The notes: generated from the sequence alone by a model not told the origin. A stretch of 64,000 nt of DNA from Candidatus Omnitrophota bacterium (GCA_002753465.1 PEAF01000004.1:474-64473), one strand, 5' to 3'; shown: positions 1,934-48,402, numbered from the stretch's first letter. Numbers and translations: made by a program.

Positions 1934-1960
1934 ATCTTTTGAACCACGCCAGGAGAACGG

Positions 1961-32610: not shown

Positions 32611-33291
32611 ATGGGTGGTTGGAATCAGATCGTGATCGTTCCGCTGACGAACATGCTCAATACAGTAGCGGTTTATTTGCCGTTTTTATTCGGCGCCATG
32701 ATCATTTTGCTCATTGGATGGATCATTGCTAAAACGATTGCCAGCGTTGTTCAGCAGGTCTTAGAGAGACTTAAGTTCAATGAGCTCTCGGCGCAGATCG
32801 GACTGACGGACATCCTCAATAAAGGCGGCTTAAGCCTTTCTCCGGCAGCATTGCTCTCTTCATTTGTTTATTGGGTCCTTTTCATTGTAGTGCTCGCCAC
32901 GACCATGCAGGCCATCGGCCTCGAAGTGGCGGCCAAGTTACTTGAGCGGGTGATGGGTTATGTACCTAACGTTGTTTCCGCTGTTTTCGTGGTCGTTGTG
33001 GGTATGTTCCTGGCGAATCTGGTGACAGGCATTGTGAAGGCCGCGGCCAATAATGCCAAGCTCGCCCGCGCTGAACTGCTGGCCAGTATCGCTAAAGGCG
33101 GCATCCTGATCTTTACCGCTGTGAGCGCCCTTGAACAGTTGAATATCGCGACATTCTTTGTTACAACCACATTCCAGATCTTCTTTGCGGCGGTTTGTCT
33201 GGCGCTCGCCCTGGCTTTTGGCATCGGCGGCAAAGACCTGGCGGCCAGGATCCTTTGGGATTTCTATAATCAGCAGAATGAGAAGAAGTAA
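32611..33291 (+). CDS. Conserved-TM-helix-repeat membrane protein (mechanosensitive-channel-associated family)
   Basis: The N-terminus VAVYLPFLFGAMIILLIGWIIAKTIASVV and the repeated TM pattern resemble the TM_helix repeat family. Confidence 0.55.
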   Translation: MGGWNQIVIVPLTNMLNTVAVYLPFLFGAMIILLIGWIIAKTIASVVQQVLERLKFNELSAQIGLTDILNKGGLSLSPAALLSSFVYWVLFIVVLATTMQAIGLEVAAKLLERVMGYVPNVVSAVFVVVVGMFLANLVTGIVKAAANNAKLARAELLASIAKGGILIFTAVSALEQLNIATFFVTTTFQIFFAAVCLALALAFGIGGKDLAARILWDFYNQQNEKK

Positions 33292-35293
33292 TACCTTGAT
33301 CGAGTTGTTTTTGGGAAAGCGCAGGGGGTTCATTGCCTCCTGCGCTTTTTTATTGGGAGTGATATCTGTTGCTTCCCAGGTTATTCTTATACGTGAATTG
33401 ATGAGCGTTTTCAGCGGGAATGAGCTGGTGTTCGTTGTTGTGCTGGGAGTGTGGCTTGTGGGTGTGGCGCTCGGAAGTTTTCTGTTGCGCGCTTCCTCAT
33501 GGATATGGGTGACAGGGCTTTTCTTGGCATCGTTGGTTGTATTGCCGGTAACGATCCTGGCGGTAAGATCCTTCAGGGCTCTTTTGGGTATCCCTATGGG
33601 AAGCTTAACGGATATCGGACGCGTTGTTGCGGTAAGCAGCGTTCTTATTTTGCCGGTAGCCGTTATTCTGGGCGGTCTTTTTGCTGTCCTGGCACGTTTA
33701 AGCGAGGATGCTTCCGGTATATACGGGAAGGAAGCCGCTGGGTTTACTGTGGGCGGTATTTTGATGGCGTTGATCTTTATGGTGCCGTTGCCAGCTGACC
33801 TTAACCAGCGCACGTCCATGATCGCGTGGCAGGGGTATGAGCTTATAGCACAGGAACAATCACCTTATGGCCATCTGATGGTCATTGAGCGCGGCGGGCA
33901 ACGCAGCCTTATTGAAAATGGCCGGCATCTTTTCACAGCGCAGGATGACCTTTCCGCTGAAGAGGTGCAGGTGCCGCTTTTAGTGCACCCCAACCCCAAG
34001 GATGTTTTTCTTGTCGGCGGGGGTTTTTCCGAAGCAGGGTCTCAAATGCTCAAGCATCCTTTGGAGCGCCTGGATTACGCCGAACTTGACCCCGTCGCCC
34101 TGCGCCTTGAAAAAGCTTTCTTTACATCTCACCTGGATATGCGGATCCATTTGAATGCAGGTGATCCCAGGCGTATCCTGGCCCGACAGGCCAGGCGTTA
34201 TGATGTGATCGTGATCAATGCCGGGGATCCTGTGAGTTTGCTTTCAGCACGGTTATTTACACGTGAATTTTATGACGAGGCACGTCGTCACTTGATGCCG
34301 GGTGGTATTTTAAGCATCACCATGGGCTTGTCAGAAGATTATGTGAATCCTCAAGGCAAAGCGTATGCTTCCAGTGTTTATGCGACTTTGTTATCTGTTT
34401 TTAAGGACGTTCAGGTGGTTTCGGGTGAGCGCATGGTGTGGTTGGCGTCCGATAAGAGGTATCATTTAAGCAGTGAGTTATTGACGGCGCGTTTGCACGA
34501 GCGGGGCATCGTTACCAAGTTTATTCAGGGGCATTATCTGAAGGACCGGATGGCGCCATGGCGCATCGCGGAGGTTTACGCCTGGCTTGATCCCTCCGCC
34601 GCGATATCAACCGATGATAAGCCTGTTGCAGCTGTTCGCGCGCTGGCATTTTTAACAACGCGGACAGGGTCGGCTTTCTCAACATGTGTAGAAGTTTTTG
34701 AGCGATACGGATTTTGGTTATGGACGGTGATCCCGGCCATGGCGTTGGCTGGCTTTTTCGGTCGCGGCATGGTTGGCGCTCCTTTATGGGGGATGGGGGT
34801 TGTCGGGTTTACTCAGATGGCGTTTCAAGTTGCCGTCATATTGAGCGTGCAGGCTGTTTTTGGACATGCGTATGCGATGGTCGGTGTTTTGACAGCAGGG
34901 TTCATGTTCGGGGTATTTATGGGGACACATTTATTTAAACACGTTTTGAAAGACAGCCTTGTGCCGGCGGGCCTGTTGGCGCAGACCCTGCTGGCAGGCA
35001 CGTTCATGGCTTGTTGGACGTGGTGGCCACAGGGGTTTTACTTTTTTCCTGTTGTAGCGGGTGTTTTCGGCGGCGGTTTATTCAGGGCTTATACGGCCAT
35101 CGCCGGTGAGGGTCGCGCGGGGGTTGTTTATGCCGCTGACCTTATCGGCGCGGCGGCGGGGGCTTTTCTTGTCGGACTTTTCCTGGTCCCTTTATGGGGG
35201 ATCACAGCAACCATGCTTTTTGTCGCGGCATTTAACGCGGCGATGTATTTGGGTGCGCGGTCTTACCCTGGTAAGGTATCGGCGCTTTTATAG
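33278..35293 (+). CDS. Membrane-fused spermidine-synthase-like (polyamine aminopropyltransferase fold) protein
   Basis: N- and C-terminal TM bundles flank SPYGHLMVIE..VFLVGGGFSEAG..YDVIVINAGDP. ATG 33278 is preferred; the track start at 33158 lies inside the upstream gene. Confidence 0.65.
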   Translation: MRRSNTLIELFLGKRRGFIASCAFLLGVISVASQVILIRELMSVFSGNELVFVVVLGVWLVGVALGSFLLRASSWIWVTGLFLASLVVLPVTILAVRSFRALLGIPMGSLTDIGRVVAVSSVLILPVAVILGGLFAVLARLSEDASGIYGKEAAGFTVGGILMALIFMVPLPADLNQRTSMIAWQGYELIAQEQSPYGHLMVIERGGQRSLIENGRHLFTAQDDLSAEEVQVPLLVHPNPKDVFLVGGGFSEAGSQMLKHPLERLDYAELDPVALRLEKAFFTSHLDMRIHLNAGDPRRILARQARRYDVIVINAGDPVSLLSARLFTREFYDEARRHLMPGGILSITMGLSEDYVNPQGKAYASSVYATLLSVFKDVQVVSGERMVWLASDKRYHLSSELLTARLHERGIVTKFIQGHYLKDRMAPWRIAEVYAWLDPSAAISTDDKPVAAVRALAFLTTRTGSAFSTCVEVFERYGFWLWTVIPAMALAGFFGRGMVGAPLWGMGVVGFTQMAFQVAVILSVQAVFGHAYAMVGVLTAGFMFGVFMGTHLFKHVLKDSLVPAGLLAQTLLAGTFMACWTWWPQGFYFFPVVAGVFGGGLFRAYTAIAGEGRAGVVYAADLIGAAAGAFLVGLFLVPLWGITATMLFVAAFNAAMYLGARSYPGKVSALL

Positions 35294-35408
35294 AATTTGG
35301 CCTCGGTCAGTCTGCCGGGCGCCGTCTCGCCGGATAATGGTTTTATCCATTTTAGGATAAATATCCCCGCCATAGCTGTCAGGCATGTTTTTAGGAAATC
35401 ACGTCTAT

Positions 35409-36383
35409 TCATGACCATATCCCCGGGATTTTTGTGCCGCAGTATTCACAGGCGCCATCCTTGAGATGGTTTTCGATCACATCATAGCCTTCACGCCGTA
35501 TCAATATCTTGCCGTCATGAGGGCAGTAGGTGTGATTGCCTGGATGCCCGGGGACATTGCCGATATAAATGAATTTCATGCCTTCGGACTTGGCTATATC
35601 CCAGGCACGGTTAAGGGTTTCCAGCGGGGTTGGCGGCAGATCGTTTAATTGGTACATCGGAGAGAACCTTGAAAAATGCAGCGGCGTGTCCGGCCCCACG
35701 TTGTCTTTCACCCAGCGTACCAAAGCCAGGATATCTTTATCGCTGTCATTCCACGTCGGGACGACCAAGTTGCACAGCTCGAGCCACACGCCCTGTTTCT
35801 TGATGGTCGTGATGGTGTCCAGCACCGGCTTTAAATGGGCTTTGCACATTTTGATATAGAAATCATCGGTCATGCCTTTGAGGTCGATCTTAATGGCGTC
35901 GGCCACCTGGCATAATTCAATGAGCGGCTTTTGCTCGATATATCCGCCGGAAACCAGTATGTTGAGGATGCCGTTTCTTTTGGCGCTCACGCAGGTGTCA
36001 TAGGTGTATTCGTAAAACACAACGGGATCTGAATAGGTGTAGGCAATGCTGCGGCATTGATGCCGCTTGGCCTGCCGGACGACTTCATCGGGCGGCATGT
36101 CGATATGTTCTGCTTTTTCGGGGGGTGTCTGGGATATTTGCCAGTTCTGACAGTAAAGGCAGTGCAGGTTGCATCCTGCGGTGGCCAGTGAAAAGGCTGT
36201 TGAGCCGGGAAGTATGTGGAAGAACGGTTTTTTTTCGATCGGGTCCACGTGTACGGTGCAGGGCGTCCCATAGACAAGAGAGAAAAGCTTTCCGTCGACA
36301 TTGGTGCGGACACGGCAATCGCCGCGCTGTCCTTCAGCAAGCTTGCAATGTCTCGGGCAAAGGGTGCATTCGACTTTATTCAT
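35409..36383 (-). CDS. AmmeMemoRadiSam-system-type radical SAM enzyme
   Basis: CTLCPRHCKLAEGQRGDCRVR N-terminal Cys cluster. CNLHCLYCQNW (CX3CX2C). PFL-activase-like length. Confidence 0.75.
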   Translation of the reverse strand: MNKVECTLCPRHCKLAEGQRGDCRVRTNVDGKLFSLVYGTPCTVHVDPIEKKPFFHILPGSTAFSLATAGCNLHCLYCQNWQISQTPPEKAEHIDMPPDEVVRQAKRHQCRSIAYTYSDPVVFYEYTYDTCVSAKRNGILNILVSGGYIEQKPLIELCQVADAIKIDLKGMTDDFYIKMCKAHLKPVLDTITTIKKQGVWLELCNLVVPTWNDSDKDILALVRWVKDNVGPDTPLHFSRFSPMYQLNDLPPTPLETLNRAWDIAKSEGMKFIYIGNVPGHPGNHTYCPHDGKILIRREGYDVIENHLKDGACEYCGTKIPGIWS

Positions 36384-36583
36384 GGGGCACTTTTCCAGTA
36401 TTTCCCCTCGTGCAGGGGTAGTTTCATGTCCATGATCTTTTGACGTGCTTCACCCGGCTTCAGGGTGTCGGCAGATGATAGGCCGGCAGTACTTATATTA
36501 TCAGTTATGATCGACCCCAGCAAGAACAGGGAACACAGCATAATGGCCATAAAAAGACGGTCATGTTTAGTCATGGAAGCCAC
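36380..36583 (-). CDS. 67-aa membrane-anchored mini-protein
   Basis: ATGA overlap with the downstream radical SAM start. Overlaps the upstream stop by 17 nt, or by 8 nt if the start is the internal Met (MTKHD...) at 36574. Hydrophobic LFMAIMLCSLFLLGSII. Confidence 0.45.
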   Translation of the reverse strand: MASMTKHDRLFMAIMLCSLFLLGSIITDNISTAGLSSADTLKPGEARQKIMDMKLPLHEGKYWKSAP

Positions 36584-37754
36584 CTTTGATCATGAGCGCA
36601 TTGACAGGGCAGGCGCGCAGGCATTTAGCACAGTTGATACATTCTGCCATATCGATGGCGGGAATGCCTTTTTTATCAGAGGTGATCGCTTCTGTGGGGC
36701 AGATCCTGGCACAGTCGCCGCAGCCATTACAGGTGGAACGAGGTTTTATTTTGAAAAAGCTGAAGACTGCAGCGAGCCCTGTCAGGGCGCCGACAGGGCA
36801 GAGGTACTTGCACCAGAACCGGTAGTTGAATATGGCGAGCACGAGCATGAAAGCCAGAAAAGCCCAGGCAAGTTTACTGCCATGCCCGGCAAAGAGGGTG
36901 ATGAAGGGTTCAATATTGGCAATAGCGCCAGAGTTTAGGTATAGAGCGAGGCTCATGAGGATCAAAAGTAAAATGTATTTAATGAGACGGCTGTATTTAT
37001 CGATGACCGGCGTGATGACGGGGGTTGTATCGGCACGCCGGGATTTGAACATGAATAATATTTCCTGGATAGACGCGAAAGGGCACAAGCTGCCGCAGTA
37101 GACCCTTCCGATAAGGAATGCACTGAGGATGCCTATGATCAGGAACATCCACCATAAAGTGTTTTGACTGAAGTCCGGCGCTTTGCCCAGGCCTGCCTGA
37201 GTGATCTGGAGGATCGAAAGCATGGAGTGATTGATGATACCGAAATAAAAGGTACTGCCGATCATTACTGCCCAGCGCAGGGGGTTGTGACGATAGCAGA
37301 AGGCGATGGTGGCTGCAACTATAAGGAGTAAGGGGAGGATAATATACTCAATATTTAAAGCTGGTATTCTTTCTTCCTGTTGAGGCGTTTTGAGGATCAA
37401 GGCGCGCTCTTTACGTACACCCTCGGTGATGGCGTCACTGGTGATCGTTGCTCCTGAGATCGCATCGATGTCTCTCCCAAGGATAAGCTGGTTTTCACGG
37501 GGCTTTCCGATGAAGCGGGCCAGGAAGTCTTCAAGCCGGCCGACATAAGAAGGTGTTTCATCGTGTTGCGTGACTTGCAGGGATGTGATCGTACCATTAT
37601 CAGTAAGCTCCATGGTCATGTGAATCGGGCCGCCGTAGCCATAAGCTGTGAAAGCCGGCGGGGCTGCTAACTGGGGACGGCTCGTCCATAGGCCAGCGGC
37701 AAACAGTGTGCAACATAGAGTGGTTGCAATAAAGTAAAAACGCGGGTTGAACAT
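36567..37754 (-). CDS. FMN-binding-domain / NapH-NosR-like polyferredoxin membrane protein
   Basis: Flavinylation-type motif DAISGATITS. TM-embedded CGSLCPFASIQE and FWCKYLCPVGAL. C-terminal CNGCGDCARICP and CINCAKCLRACP. Confidence 0.7.
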   Translation of the reverse strand: MFNPRFYFIATTLCCTLFAAGLWTSRPQLAAPPAFTAYGYGGPIHMTMELTDNGTITSLQVTQHDETPSYVGRLEDFLARFIGKPRENQLILGRDIDAISGATITSDAITEGVRKERALILKTPQQEERIPALNIEYIILPLLLIVAATIAFCYRHNPLRWAVMIGSTFYFGIINHSMLSILQITQAGLGKAPDFSQNTLWWMFLIIGILSAFLIGRVYCGSLCPFASIQEILFMFKSRRADTTPVITPVIDKYSRLIKYILLLILMSLALYLNSGAIANIEPFITLFAGHGSKLAWAFLAFMLVLAIFNYRFWCKYLCPVGALTGLAAVFSFFKIKPRSTCNGCGDCARICPTEAITSDKKGIPAIDMAECINCAKCLRACPVNALMIKGGFHD

Positions 37755-37905
37755 AGTGTTTTATTCTATAACAGAGTTTGTAAAATGTCATAGTCAATTA
37801 TATGCAGTAGCTGGCTGCGTAGTGTCCATTTATCAGAAATACCTTGAGCACAGCGTCTTTTCTTATAATATTATCTTATATGTTCAAGAAAGGTCCGCTC
37901 GCGTG

Positions 37906-39069
37906 ATGAAGAGGCTGATGCATTTGTTGGGTTCCGCCGCATTTACGGCCGTGATCAGCACGGTCCTGATCGGGTTCTTTATTATATCTACATCGACTGA
38001 AGCCATGCATGGCAGCGTATTGTCGCAGGAGATCTTTTATAATGCCTGGTGGTTCGACCTGTTGGTTTCTTTATTATGGGTCAATATCTTCTTTTCCATC
38101 GTTGTGCGATGGCCGTTGTGCTGGCGGCAGACCGGATTTCTGATCACGCATGTCGGTATCCTGGGCATACTTTCCGGCGCTTTCATTATAAAATATTTCG
38201 TCGTTGACGGGCAATTGATGGTCGCTGAGGGGCAGAGGGTAGATTATTTTAAGCGCTCCGGCAAGATGCTGGCACGTACAGATAAGAAGGTTCCGTTTTG
38301 TCCTTTGGCCGTGAAAGGGCCTGTTAAGCTCCCTGCCCCTATCCTGAAGGTGATGGATAAAGAGGGCAAGGAATTACTGAGCTATACACTTGCCGTCGGG
38401 GATATCCCTGTAAAGATCAATATTCCGCAGACGGCATTTGAGATCGATGGACTGGCTTTTTATCCTTATGCTGCGGTTCAAGGCAAGGGTGTGCTGGTCA
38501 ATGATCCGGCAGGGCGCATGCCTAATCCGGCTGTGTCGTTTGACCTGATCGACAGCAAAGGGTTCGCTGTGCATCAGTTTGCATTTGCATTTTTCCCTGA
38601 TTTTAGTGCGATGCATCCCTCAGAGGAAAAGGGTGTGTCGGACCTGACGTTCCGTCTGGAAGCGGGAAAGCCTGAGGATTATACTGCATCCTCGGCTATG
38701 CCTGGTGGGGCCGCTGATCTTGCGCGGACAGATCGTTCGGAAGAGCTACCTTTTTCGCTGATGCTGAAAGATTTCCGTAAGATCGATTATCCTGGCACAA
38801 TGGAGGCGGCTGCTTTTGAGAGTGATGTTGTCCTGGAGGATAAAAAGAGCGGTGTAATGCTGGAGAAGACCATCAGCATGAACCATCCGCTGACGTATCA
38901 GGGTTACAAGATCTTTCAGATGTCGTATATTGATGACGGGGTCCACGGAAAAAGTTCCGTATTCACGGTGGCAAAAAATCCCGGGATACCGGTCGTATAT
39001 TTTAGTTCGTTTATAGCCTGCCTGGGTGCTTTATGGCAGTTTTATGGAAAAAGGTCTGAGGAGACATGA
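37906..39069 (+). CDS. ccsB: System II cytochrome c biogenesis protein (ResB/CcsB-like)
   Basis: N-terminal TM pair, a large periplasmic domain and a C-terminal TM segment (PGIPVVYFSSFIACLGALW). Precedes ccsA with a 4-nt overlap. The track start at 37747 is rejected. Confidence 0.6.
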   Translation: MKRLMHLLGSAAFTAVISTVLIGFFIISTSTEAMHGSVLSQEIFYNAWWFDLLVSLLWVNIFFSIVVRWPLCWRQTGFLITHVGILGILSGAFIIKYFVVDGQLMVAEGQRVDYFKRSGKMLARTDKKVPFCPLAVKGPVKLPAPILKVMDKEGKELLSYTLAVGDIPVKINIPQTAFEIDGLAFYPYAAVQGKGVLVNDPAGRMPNPAVSFDLIDSKGFAVHQFAFAFFPDFSAMHPSEEKGVSDLTFRLEAGKPEDYTASSAMPGGAADLARTDRSEELPFSLMLKDFRKIDYPGTMEAAAFESDVVLEDKKSGVMLEKTISMNHPLTYQGYKIFQMSYIDDGVHGKSSVFTVAKNPGIPVVYFSSFIACLGALWQFYGKRSEET

Positions 39070-40637
39070 TGAAAACAATATTGATCCTTGCTTTGGTATT
39101 CATGGGGTTTGTGGCGCCCGTCAGTGCGTCGCAGGTTGCAGGTTCCGTTGCTGTTGGTTTGATCCCCATTCAGCATGGCGGGCGCATCAAGCCTTTTGCC
39201 GCGTTTGCCCACGAACTTGTTCAGTCAATAACCGGCAAAGCCCGGTGGCAGGGATCTCCGGCGGTCGATGTGATCATGAGCCGTTTAGCCAGGCCCGAGC
39301 AATTTCTGGATGTCCCTTTCATCAGGATCGATCATCCCGGCTTAAAAGAAGCGCTGGGCATTCTATCGGAGAAGAAAAGCGTCTCGTACCATGAGCTGCA
39401 ACCAGTATTTAAGACCCTTGAGTCGATCGTGGCGCAAGCTTCGGTGAAGCGGCAGAAGGAAGAGAGGCTCTCTGCCCTTGAACAGCAGGCGGATATTCTT
39501 TATGAGCGTCTTGCTACAGTTGATCGCCTGAGCCGTGGAGAAATGATCACCGTTATGCCTGTTCCCGGCAAGACGGCATGGGCATCTCCTTTTACAAGCA
39601 ATATGGTTCAATCCAAATATTTCCTTCAACTTGTTAAAAATTATGCCGATAAAGACCCAAAAATTGTGACTCAGGTTGACCTTTGGATCGCATCCGTCGT
39701 GCCTTCACTGGAAAAAGACGGCTGGGAGAAGGTTAAAATGGAAGGCATCTATTATGCGATGGAGCCATTTTATTATGCCGGGATATTGTATCTTATCGGG
39801 TTTATCCTCTTAGTCTTTTCCGGATTGCGGATGCCGGATGCCGGATGCCTAGCGCTGTTCATCGGGTTTGTCTTCCATACGGCCGGGCTCCTGTTAAGAA
39901 CATATATTCTGTCGAGGCCGCCTGTCGCTAATATGTATGAGACCATGATCTTCATGGATTGGGTCCTTATGATCTGTGTCGGATGTTATGCGATCTTTCA
40001 GAAGCGTCGATCATTCTTGTCGAGCGGCGCGCTGGCAAGCGTCCTGGTGATGCTTTATGCGAATCTGCTCCCGGTTAGTAGCTCATTGGACGTCCTTTCT
40101 CCGGTTTTGCGCAGCAGTTATTGGTTAATGATCCATGTCATGACGATCATGGCCAGTTATAGTTTTTTTACGTTAGCCATGGCGATTTCTCACCGGTATT
40201 TATTTCTGGCAGCAACAGGGAAGCTGACGGCCGATGAGGACAAAGGGTCCGCGCTGGCCATTTACCGGATTTTGCAGGCGGGTTTGATCGCTTTAGGTGC
40301 GGGGACGATCTTGGGCGGCGTATGGGCCAATGAGACCTGGGGCCGGTTCTGGGGCTGGGACCCTAAAGAAACATGGGCGTTCATTACGTTTTTGGGGTAT
40401 ATGGCGATTTTGCACTTGCGTTACAGCCGTAAGCTTACGAATTGGGGTTTAGCGGTGGCCAGCCTTTTGGGATTCCTTCTGGTCCTGATGACATGGTATG
40501 GCGTGAATTTTGTCCTGGGGCGCGGCTTGCATAGTTATGGTGCAGGGTCGGGTGGTTTGGAATGGATCATGTTATTTTTGGTATTGGAGGCAGGATTCCT
40601 GGGTGGTATGATTTATTTAAGAAAGAGGAGGGGATAA
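39066..40637 (+). CDS. ccsA: System II cytochrome c biogenesis protein CcsA/ResC with an N-terminal periplasmic extension
   Basis: WWD motif WGRFWGWDPKETWAF and conserved His-bearing TM helices. Confidence 0.8.
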   Translation: MMKTILILALVFMGFVAPVSASQVAGSVAVGLIPIQHGGRIKPFAAFAHELVQSITGKARWQGSPAVDVIMSRLARPEQFLDVPFIRIDHPGLKEALGILSEKKSVSYHELQPVFKTLESIVAQASVKRQKEERLSALEQQADILYERLATVDRLSRGEMITVMPVPGKTAWASPFTSNMVQSKYFLQLVKNYADKDPKIVTQVDLWIASVVPSLEKDGWEKVKMEGIYYAMEPFYYAGILYLIGFILLVFSGLRMPDAGCLALFIGFVFHTAGLLLRTYILSRPPVANMYETMIFMDWVLMICVGCYAIFQKRRSFLSSGALASVLVMLYANLLPVSSSLDVLSPVLRSSYWLMIHVMTIMASYSFFTLAMAISHRYLFLAATGKLTADEDKGSALAIYRILQAGLIALGAGTILGGVWANETWGRFWGWDPKETWAFITFLGYMAILHLRYSRKLTNWGLAVASLLGFLLVLMTWYGVNFVLGRGLHSYGAGSGGLEWIMLFLVLEAGFLGGMIYLRKRRG

Positions 40638-40639
40638 CA

Positions 40640-40951
40640 ATGTTGAACATTGACCGACGCAAGGTTTTAATTTTGACCAGTGTTTTCATGCTGACGTCTT
40701 TGGGTGCTGTGCAAGCCACCCCTAAACAAAGGAAATTGTATAAAGAGGTGTTCCCGGATTCAAATCCTAAGTGCGCCTATTGTCATGATCTGGATAAGCC
40801 CAGGAAAGACGGGGAAAAGCTGTCTATGAATGATTATGGGATGGCGATCATAAAAGCGGCGCAAGATGCCCGGGAGACTAAAGACATGGAAGCCGTGCCT
40901 GTTGCTGAAACCTATAAAAAAGTAGGTCAAGTTGAAGATTTCAAGAAGTAA
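40640..40951 (+). CDS. Periplasmic monohaem c-type cytochrome
   Basis: Signal peptide MLNIDRRKVLILTSVFMLTSLGAVQA and a single CAYCH motif. Confidence 0.65.
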   Translation: MLNIDRRKVLILTSVFMLTSLGAVQATPKQRKLYKEVFPDSNPKCAYCHDLDKPRKDGEKLSMNDYGMAIIKAAQDARETKDMEAVPVAETYKKVGQVEDFKK

Positions 40952-41690
40952 AGTAGCTCTTCTTATAATTGGCGTAGCCGTATTTTTCATTGCGGGGATC
41001 ACGTATGCCTCCAGTGCCGGTAAGGCTCCTGTGACCGCGATCAAGGGTGCTACCTATGTCGGTTTGGAGACCTGTACGGCCTGTCACCGGAAAGAGGGAC
41101 GGGTTTATCCGGCGTCTTTGCACGCGAGGCTTGCGACCAGAGATGCTGATCAGGCTCAGGATTGTGAGATATGCCACGGTGCCGGCAGCATACACGCCGA
41201 TGACCCGAGGAAAAAAGGGAGTATCATCAATCCACGCAAGGATCCTGAGATCTGCCTGAGTTGCCATCAGGAAAAGCGCATGGAAGCCAAGTTGCCGTTC
41301 AGGCATCCGGTCCTGGAAGGCAAGATGGGTTGTACGGATTGTCATGAACCGCACGGAGCGGATCTCGTCGCCGGCGGAGCGTCCATGGAAAGTATGAATG
41401 AGGTTTGTTTCAAGTGTCATAAAGACCAGCAGGGCCCGGTGGTTTATGAGCATGCGGCCATGCGCGAAGGTTGCACAGAATGCCATAAGGTGCATGGTTC
41501 TATTTATGACAAAATGCTTAAGACCAGGGATGCCAATCTGTGTTTGCGTTGTCATGTGCAGGCTAATTTTCCTACAATCGGAGGGGGCGCGCATACGTCT
41601 AATTCGAGGATACCCCAGGGTGTATGTTTTTATGCCGGATGTCATACGGCGGTGCACGGGTCTAATTTTGATAAAACGCTGCGCTACTAA
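40932..41690 (+). CDS. Periplasmic multihaem c-type cytochrome (7 CXXCH + 1 CX4CH)
   Basis: CTACH, CEICH, CLSCH, CTDCH, CFKCH, CTECH, CLRCH, then CFYAGCH..HGSN. TTG start and signal-anchor KVALLIIGVAVFFIAG. Confidence 0.8.
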   Translation: MKISRSKVALLIIGVAVFFIAGITYASSAGKAPVTAIKGATYVGLETCTACHRKEGRVYPASLHARLATRDADQAQDCEICHGAGSIHADDPRKKGSIINPRKDPEICLSCHQEKRMEAKLPFRHPVLEGKMGCTDCHEPHGADLVAGGASMESMNEVCFKCHKDQQGPVVYEHAAMREGCTECHKVHGSIYDKMLKTRDANLCLRCHVQANFPTIGGGAHTSNSRIPQGVCFYAGCHTAVHGSNFDKTLRY

Positions 41691-41726
41691 GAGGGTGAGC
41701 ACATAGCACATATTTCTTTTAAACAC

Positions 41727-43817
41727 ATGCTCGGGCGTATTTTTTGCGGCGGTTGTATCTTCGTAGCCGGTGTTGCCGCGGCATCTGCTGAAAGTAAGGC
41801 GTCTGTCGAAATCACGCCTGCGGTCAAGGTTGTTGAGGTCAAAGGGGATGTTGCCAAATTCCGGGCCATCAGCGGTCAGAATGATCAGGGTTCTTCCGGC
41901 TTCAAGGATATTTCCATAGAGAGCGATATAAGCAAGGGTACCCGCATTACGATGAAGGGTGGCTATTTGCCGGAGGAGAATGATAATAACGGTACGGTCT
42001 TGATCACCCAAGATGATGTCGGGTTTATCCGGATGGATTACAATGCGCTGCGCCGGTATTACATGAATCAAGGGGGATATTATCCTTTTACGACGGCAGG
42101 CCTTCAGGTCATCCGCCTGACGCAGGATCTGAACATGGATATTGATAAGTTCAGTTTTGAGCTCGGCAACGGCACGCCGGATGATTCCACCCTCAGTGTG
42201 CAATATGATCGCAGGACTAAAAAGGGCATCAAGAACCGTTTGACCTGGGGAGGCGTTGTTTCGGGTTTGGCGACCAAATCGACGGCGCCGTCTTACAGTG
42301 AGCATGATGAAACAACCGACACGGTAACAGTTAAAAATAAATTTCAGGCCATGGGATTCACGGTTAAGGGTGCCCAGCAGTACGAATTCTTTCAGTCCAA
42401 TAAGAGCCGCACCGAGCAATGGTACAACGCTGCCATGGACACGCCTGCCAGTACGAATAAGAAAAGAGTGCAGTCGGACGACACACAGGCCAAGTCGTTA
42501 TCGACAACGCTTTTAGCGGATAAGTGGTCGCTGAATGACAAGACTTATCTGGCGGTTGGTTCGCGTTATTCGCACAACAGGACAAGTCAAATTGAGGTGC
42601 AGCGTGAGTATCAGGTTGATGGTACGCCGTGGGCCTATAGCCGTCCATATATTAAAGACGGGGGGGCCGATAACTTCGAGGATAAGTACACGTTGACGGG
42701 GAATTTGCTGTCCAATTTAAGCGACCGGTTGACATTTGGCACGAAGTTCAAGACTGATATGACATCTATCCGTGCGGCATCGACCCAGGGGGCTGATTGC
42801 GGCCCGGCGGATACGGTCTGTTCTTCTATCGCGGCTGCAGGTGTGTCGCCGGACGGTGTTGCCAATTATTACTATGATGGCTCGACTGAGAATAAGATCA
42901 TGGCAACGGCAGGCAGCTTCTCACTCAAGTACAGCGGCATTCCCAAGACCAGCCTTTATACCGACCTTGACCTGACGCATGAACGCAATTGGCTGTCTCT
43001 GGCCCGTATAGCTTATTTGGGGCAGGACGCTTCGTTGGCTACCAATACATCCGGGGATGCGTATCATGATATTATTAATCGCACAGCCGATATTACCAGC
43101 ACCGTCGGTGCGCGATTTACGCCGGTAAAGAATGTCACGACGACCGTAGAGTATAAGAATGGCGGTAAGAATGACAAGCTCGACAGGATCATTTACTCAA
43201 GTGATAGCGAAGCATACTTGAATACTTTACGCACGCGAAAAGAGGAGGTGGCCTCGCGGATCGCGTGGAAGCCTGTGAAGTGGTTCGAGAATTCATTTCG
43301 TTACAAGACGATAGGAAAAACATACAAGACCCAATATGCAGCCTTGGATATGGTCAAAAGCCAGCAGATGGAGCGGGATTATATTTATGATGTGACACTG
43401 ATCCCGACGGATGCGTTGATGTTCAATGTTGCTTATTTATTGCAACTTTATAAAACGTCGACTCCGGCCGCCCAGATGCAGACCGCAACCTATTTGCCGG
43501 CAACGACCGCGAATGTACATACATGGTCAGCAGGGATCAGTTATGCCCCGGTTCAGACGTTAAGCTTTTTCAATTCCTATGAATATTCCAGGGCCAAGAA
43601 CGCCAATAACGATTACATAGGTGATACAGGGACGGCCTTCTTATACGCGCCTGATAATGAATGGTACAATACCAGTCTGGGCGTTACGTGGTCGCCCAGG
43701 AAGTATTTGACCATTGAACCGCGCTATACCTATTATGGTTTTCGTTCGTACCAGTCTGTCGATACGGGCAATTATACGGCGCAGGCCTTATGGCTTGATG
43801 TTAATGTGATCTGGTAA
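41727..43817 (+). CDS. Outer-membrane beta-barrel protein, MtrB/PioB/OmbB-type porin candidate
   Basis: Signal peptide ..VAGVAAASA/ES. A ~670-aa mature chain rich in Tyr/Thr/Asn/Gly alternation. C-terminal ..LWLDVNVIW (aromatic terminus). Lies 36 nt after the multihaem cytochrome. Confidence 0.6.
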   Translation: MLGRIFCGGCIFVAGVAAASAESKASVEITPAVKVVEVKGDVAKFRAISGQNDQGSSGFKDISIESDISKGTRITMKGGYLPEENDNNGTVLITQDDVGFIRMDYNALRRYYMNQGGYYPFTTAGLQVIRLTQDLNMDIDKFSFELGNGTPDDSTLSVQYDRRTKKGIKNRLTWGGVVSGLATKSTAPSYSEHDETTDTVTVKNKFQAMGFTVKGAQQYEFFQSNKSRTEQWYNAAMDTPASTNKKRVQSDDTQAKSLSTTLLADKWSLNDKTYLAVGSRYSHNRTSQIEVQREYQVDGTPWAYSRPYIKDGGADNFEDKYTLTGNLLSNLSDRLTFGTKFKTDMTSIRAASTQGADCGPADTVCSSIAAAGVSPDGVANYYYDGSTENKIMATAGSFSLKYSGIPKTSLYTDLDLTHERNWLSLARIAYLGQDASLATNTSGDAYHDIINRTADITSTVGARFTPVKNVTTTVEYKNGGKNDKLDRIIYSSDSEAYLNTLRTRKEEVASRIAWKPVKWFENSFRYKTIGKTYKTQYAALDMVKSQQMERDYIYDVTLIPTDALMFNVAYLLQLYKTSTPAAQMQTATYLPATTANVHTWSAGISYAPVQTLSFFNSYEYSRAKNANNDYIGDTGTAFLYAPDNEWYNTSLGVTWSPRKYLTIEPRYTYYGFRSYQSVDTGNYTAQALWLDVNVIW

Positions 43818-43905
43818 CAACAGATACGGCATCGCTAAACGCCCTGGGCCGGAATCGATAAAAATTCTTGATTCGTTTATCCTTAGCATCCGCAGGATTA
43901 TTTTC

Positions 43906-43934
43906 TTGCAGAATACCGCTCTTCTCCATATAAT
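43906..43934 (+). promoter_or_regulatory. Sigma70-type promoter candidate for the hydrogenase operon
   Basis: TTGCAG-17 nt-TATAAT, about 77 nt upstream of ATG 44011. Confidence 0.5.
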
Positions 43935-44010
43935 CAGCCAATTCATAAGGGTCAGGAAGTTCATCCGAATAGTCCCGACTTAACCCGCATTAAACATCAG
44001 GAGTTTGTTT

Positions 44011-44487
44011 ATGGTCGTTGAAACCTTAAAAGACGACGTAAAAGCCGTTATTGAGCGTTGGAAGGATAAAGAGGGTAACCTCATCATGATCCTTCATGAT
44101 ATTCAGGACCGTTACGGGTATGTTCCGCGTGAGGCCGCGCTTGAAGTGTCGCGTCAGGCAGATATGCCGCTGGCGCGCATTTATGAGGTTCTTACGTTCT
44201 ACAATTATTTCAAGCTGACGCCTCCCGGCAAATTCACTATTTCGGTCTGTTTGGGTACGGCGTGTTATTTGAAGGGAGCTCCGGCTTTGATCGAGGAGAT
44301 CCGCCGTTTGCTTCAGGTGGATGAAGGGCATACGACCAAGGACGGTTTATTTCATCTGCAGATCGTCCGTTGCCTGGGTTGTTGCGGCTTGGCGCCGGTG
44401 ATCACGGTAGGGCACAAGGTTTACAGCGCGGTCAAGAGGACCGATGTGATGGGTATCATTGCCGAACATAAGACCGTTGAAGCTTAA
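44011..44487 (+). CDS. hydC: [FeFe]-hydrogenase NuoE-like [2Fe-2S] subunit (HydC/HndA)
   Basis: SVCLGTACYLKG and RCLGCCGLAP Cys pattern. AGGAG Shine-Dalgarno 8 nt before ATG 44011. Confidence 0.85.
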   Translation: MVVETLKDDVKAVIERWKDKEGNLIMILHDIQDRYGYVPREAALEVSRQADMPLARIYEVLTFYNYFKLTPPGKFTISVCLGTACYLKGAPALIEEIRRLLQVDEGHTTKDGLFHLQIVRCLGCCGLAPVITVGHKVYSAVKRTDVMGIIAEHKTVEA

Positions 44488-44530
44488 ATCGGCTGCGTGC
44501 GTTCGGCGTTAATTATTGAGGAGGGCCGTT

Positions 44531-44872
44531 ATGGCTATGACCAGGGAAGAATTAAATAAATTAAAATCAGCAGCGCAGTCCAATCCACCCAGGAACTGGA
44601 TCCGCGTGGGCTATAGCACATGCGGTGTGGCGGCGGGTGCCAAAGAAGTTCTTGATGTTCTCAACGAAGAGATCAAGGCGCACAACATGGATGTGATCGT
44701 CAAGAAATGCGGCTGTGTCGGGCTTTGCTCGGCCGAACCGCTGGTTGAGGTCAATATCGAAGGCGCCCCGCGCGTATTCTACGGCAAGGTCAATAAGGAC
44801 GTGGCCCGCAGGATCGTCGATGAACATGTTTGCCAGAAGAAGCTTGTTGAGAACCATATTTACGAGATCTAA
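44531..44872 (+). CDS. Thioredoxin-like [2Fe-2S] ferredoxin (HndB-like)
   Basis: GYSTCGVAAGA..KKCGCVGLCSAEP. GAGGAGG Shine-Dalgarno before ATG 44531. Confidence 0.7.
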   Translation: MAMTREELNKLKSAAQSNPPRNWIRVGYSTCGVAAGAKEVLDVLNEEIKAHNMDVIVKKCGCVGLCSAEPLVEVNIEGAPRVFYGKVNKDVARRIVDEHVCQKKLVENHIYEI

Positions 44873-44896
44873 CCCCGGATTAATAAGGAAAAAGAT

Positions 44897-46630
44897 ATGA
44901 AACGGATCCTTCTTCAAGATACCAATGGCAGCCTTAAAAAGGAATTACGTGATTTTCACGTGGCCTTTAGCAGTTACCTGCGGGATAACAACCTCGTGGA
45001 CAAGGCCCAGGTCGTTCTTGTGTCTGATATCGGCGTGTATAACAAGGGTATTGTGGCCAAGGTGCTGCCGGAAGGCTTCATTTATGTTAATTTGAACAGT
45101 GCCAATATTGCCGAGATCGTTGACAAGACCGTGGTCAAGGGTGAAAAGATCGATGCTTTGTCTTTTGAGAAAAAGAATAAGCAGATGCGTTTGGTCCTGC
45201 GCAATTGCGGTATCGTTGATCCTGAGAGCATTGAAGAGTATATCGCTGCTGATGGTTACCAGGGGCTGGCCAATGCCCTGGCCATGGGGCCTGAAAAGGT
45301 CATTGAGGAAATGAAGAAGTCAGGCTTGCGCGGCCGCGGCGGCGCAGGTTTCCCGACATGGATGAAATGGAATATCACCCGCGGCGTGAAGGGCGATGAG
45401 AAATATATTATCTGTAATGGCGATGAAGGCGACCCGGGCGCCTATATGGACCGTTCGGTGCTTGAGGGCGATCCTCATTCTGTCATTGAAGGTCTTATGA
45501 TCGGCGGCTTTGCGGTCGGTGCCAAGCACGGTATTTTCTATATTCGTGCTGAATATCCGCTGGCGGTTGAGCGTATCCAGAAAGCTATCGATGTGTGCCG
45601 CAGTAAGGGCATTATCGGCCAGAATATTTTCGGTTCCGGCTTTGATTTTGATGTTGAGATCCGCCTGGGTGCAGGCGCTTTCGTGTGCGGCGAAGAGACG
45701 GCGCTGATCGCGTCCGTTGAAGGGTTGCGCGGCTATCCGCGCCCGCGTCCGCCGTTCCCATCGGTCAAGGGCGTATGGGGCAAGCCTACGGTCATCAACA
45801 ATGTTGAGACGTTAGCCAATATTCCTTATATCCTGTTTAAAGGCGGTGCTGAATTCGGCAAGGTCGGCACCGAAGGTTCCAAGGGGACCAAGGTTTTCGC
45901 TCTCACCGGCAAGGTCAAGAATTCAGGTTTGGTCGAAGTCCCCATGGGTACAACGCTGCGCGAGATCGTTTTCGATATCGGCGGCGGCGTCCTTAACAAT
46001 CACGCCATCAAGGCGATCCAGACCGGCGGTCCGTCGGGCGGCATGATCCCGTCGCAGTTTTTTGATACGGCTGTGGAATATGAAAGCCTGCAGAAGCTCG
46101 GCTCCATCATGGGATCGGGCGGCATGATCGTTATGGATGAGTTCGATTGCATGATCGATATCTCCAAGTTCTATCTGGGTTTTTGCGTGGATGAGTCCTG
46201 CGGCAAGTGCGCGCCGTGCCGTATCGGCGGGACGCAGATGCTGGCGATCCTTAAAAAGATCTCCGAAGGCAAGGGTGAGCCCGAGGATATGGTCAAGCTC
46301 AATCAGATCGCCCAGGCGATGCAGAAGGCTTCCTTGTGCGGGTTGGGTCAGACAGCGGCGAATCCTGTTCTCTCGACCATGAAGTATTTTGAAGATGAAT
46401 ATAAAGCGCACGTCATTGATAAGAAATGCCCGTCCTGCAAGTGCCCGAGCCTTGTAGTGTACAGCATCAATAAGGAACGCTGCACGGGTTGCAGTTTGTG
46501 CGCACGTAACTGTCCGGTCAATGCCATTTCAGGTGACCGTCAGAGCAAGTACACGGTCGATACGGCCAAGTGCATCGGGTGTGCGAACTGTTATGAAGCA
46601 TGTAAATTCAACGCGATTGTGCGTCAATAG
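44897..46630 (+). CDS. hydB: [FeFe]-hydrogenase NuoF-like flavoprotein subunit (HydB/HndC)
   Basis: GLRGRGGAGFPT, ESCGKCAPCR, and two C-terminal CxxCxxCxxxCP motifs (CTGCSLCARNCP, CIGCANCYEAC). Confidence 0.9.
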   Translation: MKRILLQDTNGSLKKELRDFHVAFSSYLRDNNLVDKAQVVLVSDIGVYNKGIVAKVLPEGFIYVNLNSANIAEIVDKTVVKGEKIDALSFEKKNKQMRLVLRNCGIVDPESIEEYIAADGYQGLANALAMGPEKVIEEMKKSGLRGRGGAGFPTWMKWNITRGVKGDEKYIICNGDEGDPGAYMDRSVLEGDPHSVIEGLMIGGFAVGAKHGIFYIRAEYPLAVERIQKAIDVCRSKGIIGQNIFGSGFDFDVEIRLGAGAFVCGEETALIASVEGLRGYPRPRPPFPSVKGVWGKPTVINNVETLANIPYILFKGGAEFGKVGTEGSKGTKVFALTGKVKNSGLVEVPMGTTLREIVFDIGGGVLNNHAIKAIQTGGPSGGMIPSQFFDTAVEYESLQKLGSIMGSGGMIVMDEFDCMIDISKFYLGFCVDESCGKCAPCRIGGTQMLAILKKISEGKGEPEDMVKLNQIAQAMQKASLCGLGQTAANPVLSTMKYFEDEYKAHVIDKKCPSCKCPSLVVYSINKERCTGCSLCARNCPVNAISGDRQSKYTVDTAKCIGCANCYEACKFNAIVRQ

Positions 46631-46641
46631 GAGTGAATCCA

Positions 46642-48402
46642 ATGTCGACGGTAACTAAGATCAAAGCCATTATCAACGGGATCCCTGTCGAGGTCGATCA
46701 GGGCGCCACGATCCTTGAGGCGGCGCATAAAGCCCAGGTCAATATCCCGACACTTTGCAAACATCCTGACCTGGTTGCTTCGGCAGGTTGCGGTATTTGC
46801 ATTGTGAAGATCAAGAATAATCGCAAGATGCTGCGCGCATGTTGTACGCCTCTTGAGGAAGGCATGGATATCATGACCCATGACCCCGAGATCGTACAGA
46901 CCCGCCGTACGGTGCTTGAGCTCATCCTTTCCAATCACCCGACGGATTGCCTGGTGTGCGGACGCAACAACGACTGCGAATTGCAGAAGATCTGTGCTGA
47001 ATTCGGTATCCGTGATGACCGTTTTGAGCGTATCCTTCCTAATATCCCGGTTGATAGTTCGACCAAGACGATCATTTTGGAGCCGAGAAAATGCATCAAG
47101 TGCAGCCGGTGCATCGATGCGTGCCAGAACATGCAGGATGTATGGGCGCTTTCATATGTGGATCGCGGGTTTAAAACGCGCATGGCACCTTCCGGCGACA
47201 TCAAGCTGGCGGAATCCCCGTGCGTGCGTTGCGGCCAGTGTGCGGCGCATTGCCCGACGGGCGCTATTTGCGAGAATGACGAGACCCAGAAGGTGTGGCA
47301 GCTCTTGCAGGATCCGGATAAGCATTGCGTGGTGCAGATCGCACCCGCGGTGCGTGTGGCGGTAGGTGAAGGGTTTGGTTATCCTGTCGGAACGAATTTG
47401 ACCAAGAAGCTTTATGCCTTGTTGCGCCGCCTTGGTTTCAAGGCCGTATTTGATACTAACTTCGGCGCTGATTTGACGATCATGGAAGAAGGCACGGAAT
47501 TTGTAGAGCGTTTTGTCAACAAAAAGGGCCCTTTACCGCTGATCACCAGCTGCTGCCCGGCGTGGGTTGATTATCTTGAGAAGTATTATGGTGATACCAT
47601 TAGCCTTTTCTCATCGGCTAAGAGTCCGCATGAGATGGTGGGTGCTTTGGCCAAGACGTATTACGCGCAGAAAAAGAATATCGATCCTTCCAAGATGAAG
47701 GTCATTTCCATTATGCCGTGCACGGCCAAGAAGTATGAGATCTCACGTACCGAAGAAATGTCAGCTTCCGGTTTTCAGGATGTTGACGTATCGTTGACGA
47801 CCCGTGAGCTCATTCGCATGATCAAACAGGCTGGTATTGACTTCAAGCAGCTTCCTGATGAAGATGCGGATCTTATGCTGGGTGATTATGCAGGGGCAGG
47901 CACGATCTTTGGTGCGACGGGTGGTGTTATGGAAGCGGCTCTGCGTACAGCTTACTTTGCCATTACGGGTGAGAATTTGAAGGATGTGAATTTCACGGCT
48001 GTGCGTGGTTTACAGGGTGTTAAAGAAACGACGATCAATATCAAGGGTACGGATGTTAAGATCGCGGTGGCGCATGGTTTGAAGAATGTAAAATATGTTA
48101 TGGATAAGGTACGCGATGCGCTTAAGAACAATCAGCCGCCTCCGTATCATTTCATTGAGGTTATGGCATGTCCCGGCGGTTGTGTTGGCGGCGGCGGTCA
48201 GCCGTATATGGTGACCGATGATATCCGCAAGCAGCGCGCGAAGGGTCTTTATGAAGAGGACGCCAACCTGCCGCATCGCTGTTCGCATGAGAATCCGTAT
48301 GTTGCACAATTATACAAGGATTTTCTGGAGAAGCCGTTGTCACATAAGTCGCACAAGCTTCTTCATACGAAGTACGTTTCACGTCCGTTGTATACGCGCT
48401 AA
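46642..48402 (+). CDS. hydA: [FeFe]-hydrogenase catalytic subunit, multi-cluster (group A, bifurcating-type architecture)
   Basis: N-terminal 2Fe-2S and 4Fe-4S Cys motifs. H-cluster motifs TSCCPAW, MPCTAKKYE and EVMACPGGCVGGGGQP. Confidence 0.9.
   Translation: MSTVTKIKAIINGIPVEVDQGATILEAAHKAQVNIPTLCKHPDLVASAGCGICIVKIKNNRKMLRACCTPLEEGMDIMTHDPEIVQTRRTVLELILSNHPTDCLVCGRNNDCELQKICAEFGIRDDRFERILPNIPVDSSTKTIILEPRKCIKCSRCIDACQNMQDVWALSYVDRGFKTRMAPSGDIKLAESPCVRCGQCAAHCPTGAICENDETQKVWQLLQDPDKHCVVQIAPAVRVAVGEGFGYPVGTNLTKKLYALLRRLGFKAVFDTNFGADLTIMEEGTEFVERFVNKKGPLPLITSCCPAWVDYLEKYYGDTISLFSSAKSPHEMVGALAKTYYAQKKNIDPSKMKVISIMPCTAKKYEISRTEEMSASGFQDVDVSLTTRELIRMIKQAGIDFKQLPDEDADLMLGDYAGAGTIFGATGGVMEAALRTAYFAITGENLKDVNFTAVRGLQGVKETTINIKGTDVKIAVAHGLKNVKYVMDKVRDALKNNQPPPYHFIEVMACPGGCVGGGGQPYMVTDDIRKQRAKGLYEEDANLPHRCSHENPYVAQLYKDFLEKPLSHKSHKLLHTKYVSRPLYTR

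Follow-up and report, generated by a model that had tools for sequence, protein, structure and literature searches.

AmmeMemoRadiSam systems consist of a radical S-adenosylmethionine (SAM) enzyme (TIGR04337), an AMMECR1-like protein A (TIGR04335) and a Memo-like protein B (TIGR04336), which are treated as three cytoplasmic partners of unknown function; the eukaryotic homologues of the system are disease-linked and their biochemistry is unknown. To our knowledge, radical SAM chemistry is taken to be limited to the cytoplasm, the compartment in which SAM and reductants of low potential can be drawn on. NapH-like flavinylated systems, which include NosR and PceC, form an extracytosolic electron-transfer apparatus (Meheust et al. 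2021, PMC8238504), a description in which radical SAM is not mentioned. Signal-less Fe-S subunits are co-exported by twin-arginine translocation (Tat) in the manner of hitchhikers, as in hydrogenase HybO/HybC and formate dehydrogenases (Rodrigue et al. 1999; reviewed in PMC10924467). Here we analyzed a stretch of 64,000 nucleotides from Candidatus Omnitrophota bacterium (GCA_002753465.1 PEAF01000004.1:474-64473; “the window”), in which four tightly coupled minus-strand open reading frames (ORFs; 35263-37754) follow one another in the order g1-g2-g3-g4. The locus combines two known kinds of component, an AmmeMemoRadiSam radical SAM enzyme (g3) and a NapH-like, putatively flavinylated conduit (g1), with a new one, a family of Tat-signal mini-proteins (g4), and it suggests radical SAM chemistry outside the cytoplasm. 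Our literature search found nothing relevant on AmmeMemoRadiSam function, on Tat-exported or periplasmic radical SAM enzymes, on AMMECR1 with Tat or on the fused MFS/spermidine synthase proteins discussed below, and no free-standing Tat signal gene of the g4 kind.

We propose that g1-g4 encode a split, export-addressed AmmeMemoRadiSam enzyme with its own electron conduit, the core of which would be exported via Tat in trans and reduced outside the cytoplasm; as a reading of sequence, we give this a probability of about 0.5. According to the comparisons below, the N-terminal module of the enzyme is detached twice: g2 would supply a membrane anchor plus the N-terminal element, g4 a Tat signal plus the same element, and g3 the bare catalytic core. 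The comparisons drew on 80 loci encoding relatives of the radical SAM enzyme, taken from GTDB species representatives and analyzed by script, and the census comprised 83 non-redundant loci (cited by L-numbers). An initial annotation of the window had described g1, g2 and g3 as one operon. All three ORFs are real at the positions it gave (g2 being listed as 36380-36583; Table 1), and so are the overlaps, which measure 17 nt between g1 and g2 (8 nt from the internal Met ATG) and 4 nt between g2 and g3 (ATGA). That operon was nevertheless incomplete, for a fourth coupled ORF, g4, had been overlooked: its ATG overlaps the g3 stop (ATGA), mirroring the g2/g3 junction, and its 3' end overlaps the convergent gene c1 by 31 nt. 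The triad is conserved as a unit in L001, L003, L004, L006-L008 and L073. In L001, L003 and L004 the cassette consists of a NapH-like gene, a mini-protein gene of 69-72 aa, the radical SAM gene and a Tat mini-protein gene of 48-50 aa, and a convergent spermine-synthase-like membrane gene comes next.

The family assignment of g3 was upheld by its TIGR04337 match of 373.4 bits and by the presence of the CNLHCLYC motif. Its cysteines form an N-terminal cluster (C6/C9/C13/C23), the radical SAM CX3CX2C motif (C71/C75/C78) and a C-terminal set (C287/C312/C315), of which the first two are invariant in 89 g3 homologues. The closest homologues (60-87% identity) are nearly all ~324 aa long and come from metagenome-assembled genomes (MAGs) of Candidatus Omnitrophota. 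The alignment of g3, moreover, begins only at position 10 of TIGR04337: the family's ‘A.FY.KL’ element (positions 1-9) is missing from the protein. An AlphaFold2 model of g3 (mean predicted local distance difference test score 93.4) has the pyruvate formate-lyase (PFL)-activating enzyme as its nearest solved fold (PDB 3C8F/3CB8; template modeling score 0.80-0.81 on target, E 3e-15), so a protein or peptide substrate is possible for g3; beyond that enzyme, no solved structure was found in the radical SAM family of g3.

The element missing from g3 is found on g2. This middle ORF had been considered to lack any recognizable family, and no Pfam or NCBIfam match was obtained for it; nonetheless, the profile chimera and spacing described below identify it as the detached membrane anchor and N-terminal element of the radical SAM enzyme itself. 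The ATG at 36574 is its likelier start because the orthologues begin with MTKHD or MSKHD. From there g2 has one transmembrane helix (aa 7-25), a linker and the tail LPLHEGKYWKSAP, which includes HEGKYWKSAP and corresponds to positions 2-9 of the TIGR04337 profile. When the g2 tail was joined to g3, the profile match reached position 2 and rose from 373.4 to 381.1 bits (+7.7). Furthermore, counted across g2-type tail and core, the motif and the first Cys lie 13-14 residues apart in the split loci with an upstream anchor mini-protein, except L017 and L044. In L004, L006 and L007, moreover, a tail of the g2 type is joined C-terminally to a g1 homologue, and in L009, L010 and L012 such a tail is joined to a free FMN_bind domain. 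The ORF is conserved and under purifying selection (ratio of nonsynonymous to synonymous differences, pN/pS, 0.33-0.68, with synonymous sites saturated at pS ~0.8). Judged from these alignments, g2 is a gene-fission product that holds the radical SAM enzyme's first structural element along with the membrane anchor, and we regard gene fission, together with homology of both mini-proteins to the enzyme's N-terminal module, as highly probable. A single gene split by sequencing error or programmed frameshift was considered and rejected: more than 100 homologues are ~324 aa long, the split is kept across divergent loci, and the g2/g3 frame offset is +2 in the window versus +1 in L001, L003 and L004.

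The fourth product, g4, consists of MNRRDFLK, a hydrophobic h-region, a basic c-region and the tail LTEAKFYKSADTLPG. Its signal has a Tat-type build (NRRDFLK, then TCLTAMAGIFIL, then KWIK), and the residues past the signal are EAKFYKSADTLPG. A single-sequence word-index search with g4 recovered only g4 itself; exhaustive phmmer and a profile brought to light 77 homologues, all free-standing and 34-85 aa long, none of them inside a long protein. In this family R3, R4, F6, K8, G16, W22, E37, A38, Y41, L47 and G49 are invariant, and pN/pS is 0.30-0.67 at similarly saturated synonymous sites (pS ~0.8). An Omnitrophota subgroup (L007, L009, L010, L012 and L013) has minis of the form S/T-R-K-x-F-L-K, 60-80 nt downstream of the radical SAM gene. 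By its sequence, g4 carries a diverged copy of the enzyme's N-terminal element behind a Tat signal. The stricter idea that g4 is the exact missing N-terminal piece of g3 was discarded in favor of a diverged paralogue of the module, the chimera having given no extension of the profile match.

How the signal and the core are distributed among relatives carries the argument further. In 60 of the 83 loci the enzyme is a single polypeptide that runs from an N-terminal signal through a linker and the motif ‘EA.[FY][YW].KL’ into the cluster ‘V.C.LCP..C’, while the remaining 23 are signal-less cores. Among the fused enzymes, 52 of 60 have a twin-arginine (RR) motif and eight a Sec-like signal; the motif-to-first-Cys distance is 13 residues in 48 of 50, and fused homologues align to TIGR04337 from position 1-2, at ‘A.FY’. 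A detector for Tat minis ([RK][RK].[FL] start, hydrophobic stretch, motif near the C-terminus, length of 28-75 residues counted from the twin-arginine-like motif) was applied uniformly to whole loci on both strands. It placed a Tat-like mini-ORF directly downstream of the radical SAM gene (-3 to +211 nt) at 18 of the 23 core loci versus none of the 60 fused loci; with atypical versions in L017, L029 and L032, and with L044, where the module is fused to Memo-AMMECR1, the count at cores reaches up to 22 of 23. Thus the export signal is either present in cis or encoded next door in trans. In a neighbor-joining tree without support values, core-type enzymes fall into at least two groups with fused lineages between them. 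In L044 (Chromatiaceae MAG; 1459-3252, plus strand), a Tat signal and EADFYRPHDLAG stand at the N-terminus of a 597-aa Memo-AMMECR1 protein encoded behind a signal-less radical SAM core.

The domains ascribed to g1 by the initial annotation were likewise recovered: FMN_bind (PF04205, 62.6 bits; FMN, flavin mononucleotide), Fer4_5 (PF12801, 49.1 bits) and 2x[4Fe-4S] Fer4 families. An N-terminal signal anchor or transmembrane helix precedes the FMN_bind domain, which bears the flavinylation motif DAISGATITS; the protein has ~5 transmembrane helices, two CX3CP motifs (CGSLCP and CKYLCP) and a C-terminal ferredoxin with two CxxCxxCxxxCP motifs, predicted to be cytoplasmic. Hydropathy and charge bias predict a NosR/NapH-type layout, with the FMN domain outside and the CX3CP loops and ferredoxin inside. 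By build g1 belongs to the flavinylated NapH-like class (PF12801 membrane Fe-S protein plus extracytosolic N-terminal FMN_bind), and it scores far under the cutoffs for NosR (NF046105, 98 bits versus 1000) and NapH (TIGR02163 and NF007013, 92.1 versus 213 and 81.3 versus 234). Orthologues are present in 21 loci; no solved structure was found for the NapH-like membrane part. NapH-like genes accompany 12 of the 23 signal-less core loci versus seven of the 60 fused loci (p=2e-4).

The fusions of g2-type tails to such conduits indicate on which side of the membrane the tail would lie: i) in L004 and L006 it follows the cytoplasmic ferredoxin and one transmembrane helix; ii) in L007, which has no ferredoxin, it follows the NapH transmembrane helices and one further helix; iii) in L009, L010 and L012 it directly follows a signal-anchored FMN_bind domain with no helix between. 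All three place it in the periplasm, and g2 itself is predicted to be N-in, C-out by hydropathy and charge bias. The three independent kinds of fusion and the predicted topology thus suggest that the radical SAM enzyme's own element is displayed outside the membrane, beside the flavin.

Candidate partners in related loci also bear export signals. A Memo-AMMECR1 fusion (TIGR04336 plus TIGR04335) adjoins the radical SAM gene in 24 related loci, and all 23 full-length fusions of this kind have Sec, lipoprotein or Tat signals; the substrate of the g3 enzyme is probably shared with these exported proteins. The commonest neighbor, in 44 loci, is a ‘fused MFS/spermidine synthase’ membrane protein (MFS, major facilitator superfamily) of the c1 type, which might have a link to SAM-type chemistry beyond the cytoplasm. 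A crude positive-inside analysis assigned the SAM/decarboxylated-SAM-fold domain of c1-type proteins to the periplasm for 33 of 39 homologues. The candidate electron-input modules (NapH-like, DUF362 and haem-like insert) tend toward mutual exclusion. DUF362 proteins, possible alternative electron donors, are confined to loci with Tat-fused enzymes (14 of 44), where they are encoded directly upstream, and never accompany core- or haem-type enzymes; a Tat-like signal was seen in the one DUF362 representative read (L036, 1735-2685, plus strand). Eight Tat-fused enzymes (L014, L021, L041, L045, L062, L069, L075 and L076) have an insert of ~24 residues, placed between N-terminal motif and Cys cluster and containing CxxCH followed by H.H, and neither NapH-like nor DUF362 genes occur at these loci. 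With its CxxCH...H.H pattern the insert looks like a site for haem c, and such a site would have to lie in the periplasm; at L014 a CcsA gene is a neighbor as well.

Under the export proposal, g3 would fold and gain its Fe-S clusters in the cytoplasm, where the g4 tail would bind it by fragment complementation, and the twin-arginine signal of g4 would take the pair across TatABC, with g3 as the hitchhiker. Once at the periplasmic face, the core would dock on the g2 tail next to g1. Electrons would pass from the cytoplasmic ferredoxin of g1 through the CX3CP membrane domain to the flavinylated periplasmic FMN domain, which would act as a tethered flavodoxin-like reductant for the radical SAM cluster. 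This scheme has an established precedent in the Tat hitchhiking of Fe-S subunits without a signal (PMC10924467), and the enrichment at split cores of NapH-like genes, which belong to an extracytosolic electron-transfer class (PMC8238504), speaks for it as well.

Several points weigh against the proposal. The formal Tat hidden Markov model placed only g4 and one of the ten fused proteins tested above its cutoff, the remaining Tat calls being made by regular expression and hydrophobicity; the eight fused homologues with Sec-like signals have no RR (e.g. KK), and such signals could not export a cofactor-loaded Fe-S enzyme; and in the Tat-like minis of L007 and L009-L013, R-K takes the place of R-R. 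The g4 tail, set before the core, does not extend the TIGR04337 match because its motif-to-Cys spacing is 17 residues, not 13. The topology was derived from hydropathy, charge bias and fusions, not from dedicated predictors or experiment. Within the 64-kb window, moreover, no Memo or AMMECR1 was detectable (tblastn with eight Memo-AMMECR1 proteins as queries), there is no TatA-like gene and no tatABC, and no apbE-like gene was found in a search with an ApbE query sequence. The absence of the first pair agrees with the earlier statement that AMMECR1 and MEMO1 partners are not adjacent, which holds for the window and not for the wider system, given the fusions beside the radical SAM gene in related loci. 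We know of no radical SAM enzyme that acts outside the cytoplasm, and the proposal leaves the supply and regeneration of SAM in the periplasm unexplained. Finally, both g2 and g4 would need the same site on the core, and the competition between them obliges one to assume a hand-over step.

It is unlikely that g3 stays in the cytoplasm and is reduced there by the 2x[4Fe-4S] ferredoxin of g1, which would draw on electrons from the membrane or periplasm while the mini-proteins only tether or regulate. Such an arrangement would suit the tight coupling of the genes, the lack of a signal on g3 itself, and a predicted cytoplasmic ferredoxin that would be a suitable low-potential donor; as a matter of general knowledge, SAM and all known radical SAM chemistry are cytoplasmic. 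A related suggestion of the initial annotation, that the conduit is a dedicated membrane reductant supply for the radical SAM enzyme, is plausible in view of the NapH-like enrichment at signal-less cores, but the topology favors delivery from the periplasmic FMN side over delivery from a cytoplasmic ferredoxin to a cytoplasmic enzyme. The three kinds of fusion put the tails that should contact the core in the periplasm, one of them directly after a signal-anchored FMN domain, and L007, L009, L010 and L012 have no ferredoxin domain yet retain FMN domain and tail. A cytoplasmic g3 would also leave unexplained why a Tat-mini gene stands beside signal-less cores and never beside fused ones, and why the partner Memo-AMMECR1 proteins are exported.

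The same small conserved peptides beside a radical SAM gene could be read as its substrates, with a PFL-activase-like enzyme modifying E-A-x-[FY]-[YW] of g4 (and g2) and Tat exporting a peptide-derived cofactor or signal, as in ribosomally synthesized and post-translationally modified peptide (RiPP) pathways. The nearest solved fold belongs to an enzyme that acts on a peptide loop, E37, A38, Y41 and the C-terminal G49 are among the invariant residues of g4, and Tat is generally known to carry modified or folded cargo. We consider this improbable, since the motif coincides with positions 1-9 of the enzyme's own profile and keeps its 13-residue spacing in the fused enzymes, which would imply self-modification. 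Furthermore, no SPASM, twitch, RiPP recognition element (RRE) or leader-recognition domain was found in g3 by Pfam/NCBIfam scans, and no mini is found beside an enzyme that has the motif itself, as complementation predicts and a substrate role does not.

A third possibility takes ‘EA.FY’ as a docking peptide for exported Memo-AMMECR1, which the FMN domain and the minis would serve in the periplasm while g3 works separately in the cytoplasm. The Memo-AMMECR1 protein of L044, with Tat signal and motif at its own N-terminus, fits this, and so does the export of such proteins in every full-length case. It is nevertheless very improbable: neither the window nor the loci of the closest relatives, L001-L008, contain a Memo/AMMECR1 gene, the fixed spacing to the first Cys and the inclusion of the motif in the radical SAM profile point to an intramolecular role, and g3 starts where g2 stops, as after a simple gene fission. 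That g2 and g4 are non-functional leftovers of rearrangement or gene-calling noise, as their very short length, the absence of a curated family and the overlap of g4 with the 3' end of a convergent gene might suggest, is scarcely credible given ORFs intact at saturated synonymous sites with pN/pS of 0.30-0.68, 77 g4 homologues with invariant residues, ATGA start/stop coupling and strict association with signal-less cores.

Table 1. Coordinates of the g1-g4 locus and its surroundings, counted from the first letter of the window.
Feature	Coordinates	Strand	Basis or remark
g1, NapH/NosR-like membrane electron conduit, 395 aa	36567-37754	-	Pfam/NCBIfam matches, motifs, hydropathy and positive-inside analysis
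g1 flavinylation motif (aa 97-106)	37437-37466	-	DAISGATITS
g1 CX3CP motif, first	37080-37097	-	CGSLCP
g1 CX3CP motif, second	36795-36812	-	CKYLCP
g1 2x[4Fe-4S] ferredoxin	36606-36731	-	two CxxCxxCxxxCP motifs
g2, anchor mini-protein, 64 aa from ATG 36574	36380-36574	-	orthologues, fusions, profile chimera; 67 aa from GTG 36583
g2 tail	36383-36421	-	TIGR04337 positions 2-9
g3, AmmeMemoRadiSam-type radical SAM core without signal, 324 aa	35409-36383	-	TIGR04337 373.4 bits versus cutoff 220
g4, free-standing Tat-signal mini-protein, 49 aa	35263-35412	-	TIGR01409 17.9 bits versus cutoff 16.7
c1, convergent neighbor, polytopic ‘fused MFS/spermidine synthase’-type membrane protein	33278-35293	+	PF01564 56.4 bits; NF037959 48.9 bits versus cutoff 40
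Promoter-like site	37763-37791	-	ATGACA-17-TAGAAT, 10/12 consensus matches; just upstream of g1 ATG, AT-rich divergent intergenic region
ResB	37747-39069	+	
CcsA	39066-40637	+	
Multihaem cytochrome	40932-41690	+	
696-aa protein	41727-43817	+	no family
NuoE-like gene	44005-44487	+	
492-aa ORF	40941-42419	-	no family match; probably spurious

The surroundings of the operon are listed in Table 1. The ORF of c1 is listed from 33158, and its likely start is the ATG at 33278. The promoter-like site before g1 was read from the sequence by a consensus scan and is a consensus match only. Divergent from g1, plus-strand genes span 37747-48402 and begin with ResB, CcsA and a multihaem cytochrome, followed by the 696-aa protein and the NuoE-like gene; 3' of the latter are ORFs with sizes matching HydABC-type hydrogenase genes. 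In L001, L003 and L004 hydrogenase genes are the direct divergent neighbors, and thus the cytochrome block looks inserted in the window. Every 2-kb bin has a positive GC skew (0.055-0.216), and the plus strand carries nearly all genes; the g1-g4 operon is the exception. That it is the only minus-strand operon in the window, as had been claimed, is plausible: the other long minus-strand ORF checked, of 492 aa, has no family match and overlaps the multihaem cytochrome gene, and is probably a spurious antisense ORF.

More tentatively, and with the odds somewhat against so broad a statement, the clade could be the first radical SAM family to work in the periplasm. In Omnitrophota/Thermodesulfovibrionales its export signal would be a separate gene for a ~50-aa peptide of Tat signal and docking strand that escorts the cluster-loaded enzyme in trans, and a flavinylated FMN domain (in other lineages a haem-c insert or a DUF362 protein) would replace flavodoxin. 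The assumption of a cytoplasmic chemistry would then be met by its opposite in a widespread bacterial clade, with Tat signals on the radical SAM enzymes, Sec or lipoprotein signals on Memo-AMMECR1 and outward-facing donors; if true, this would be a new compartment for radical SAM chemistry and the first functional handle on the AMMECR1/Memo/radical SAM system. A free-standing Tat signal gene acting in trans would likewise be new to Tat research and would offer a simple natural means of co-export. Should export prove wrong, three results hold all the same: gene fission accounts for g2, at least 77 mini-proteins that had been overlooked make up a defined family, and conduits of the flavinylated NapH-like kind have a new class of client enzyme.

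Compared with AmmeMemoRadiSam systems, g3 clearly belongs to the radical SAM family and relatives of the locus adjoin Memo-AMMECR1 fusions, but g3 lacks the first nine profile positions, which are encoded on separate minis, and is accompanied by a NapH-like conduit; export signals occur on components in related loci, and no protein A or B gene lies in the 64-kb window. With the NapH-like class g1 shares an extracytosolic FMN_bind domain with an ApbE-type motif, a PF12801 domain with CX3CP motifs and, as in NosR, a cytoplasmic ferredoxin; it differs in having half the size of NosR, a radical SAM enzyme as client in place of a respiratory reductase or oxidase, and relatives fused to the N-terminal element of that enzyme. 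As in Tat hitchhiking, a cofactor-loaded signal-less subunit is proposed to cross bound to a twin-arginine-bearing partner, yet the known partners are full-size folded subunits, whereas g4 has ~49 aa and little beyond its signal and a 15-residue docking tail. The PFL-activating enzyme is the closest solved fold to the g3 model and the closest characterized sequence relative; however, identity is 17-18%, g3 has extra N-terminal (~60 aa, four Cys) and C-terminal (~50 aa, three Cys) regions, and no glycyl-radical enzyme partner is present with it. Finally, like the RiPP radical SAM maturases (e.g. PqqE/PqqA), the locus has a short conserved peptide gene next to a radical SAM gene, and the E-x-x-x-Y spacing of the mini-proteins is, as we take it, reminiscent of PqqA; unlike those maturases, g3 has neither SPASM nor RRE, and the peptide motif, a homologue of the N-terminus of the enzyme itself, is present only where the enzyme is without it.

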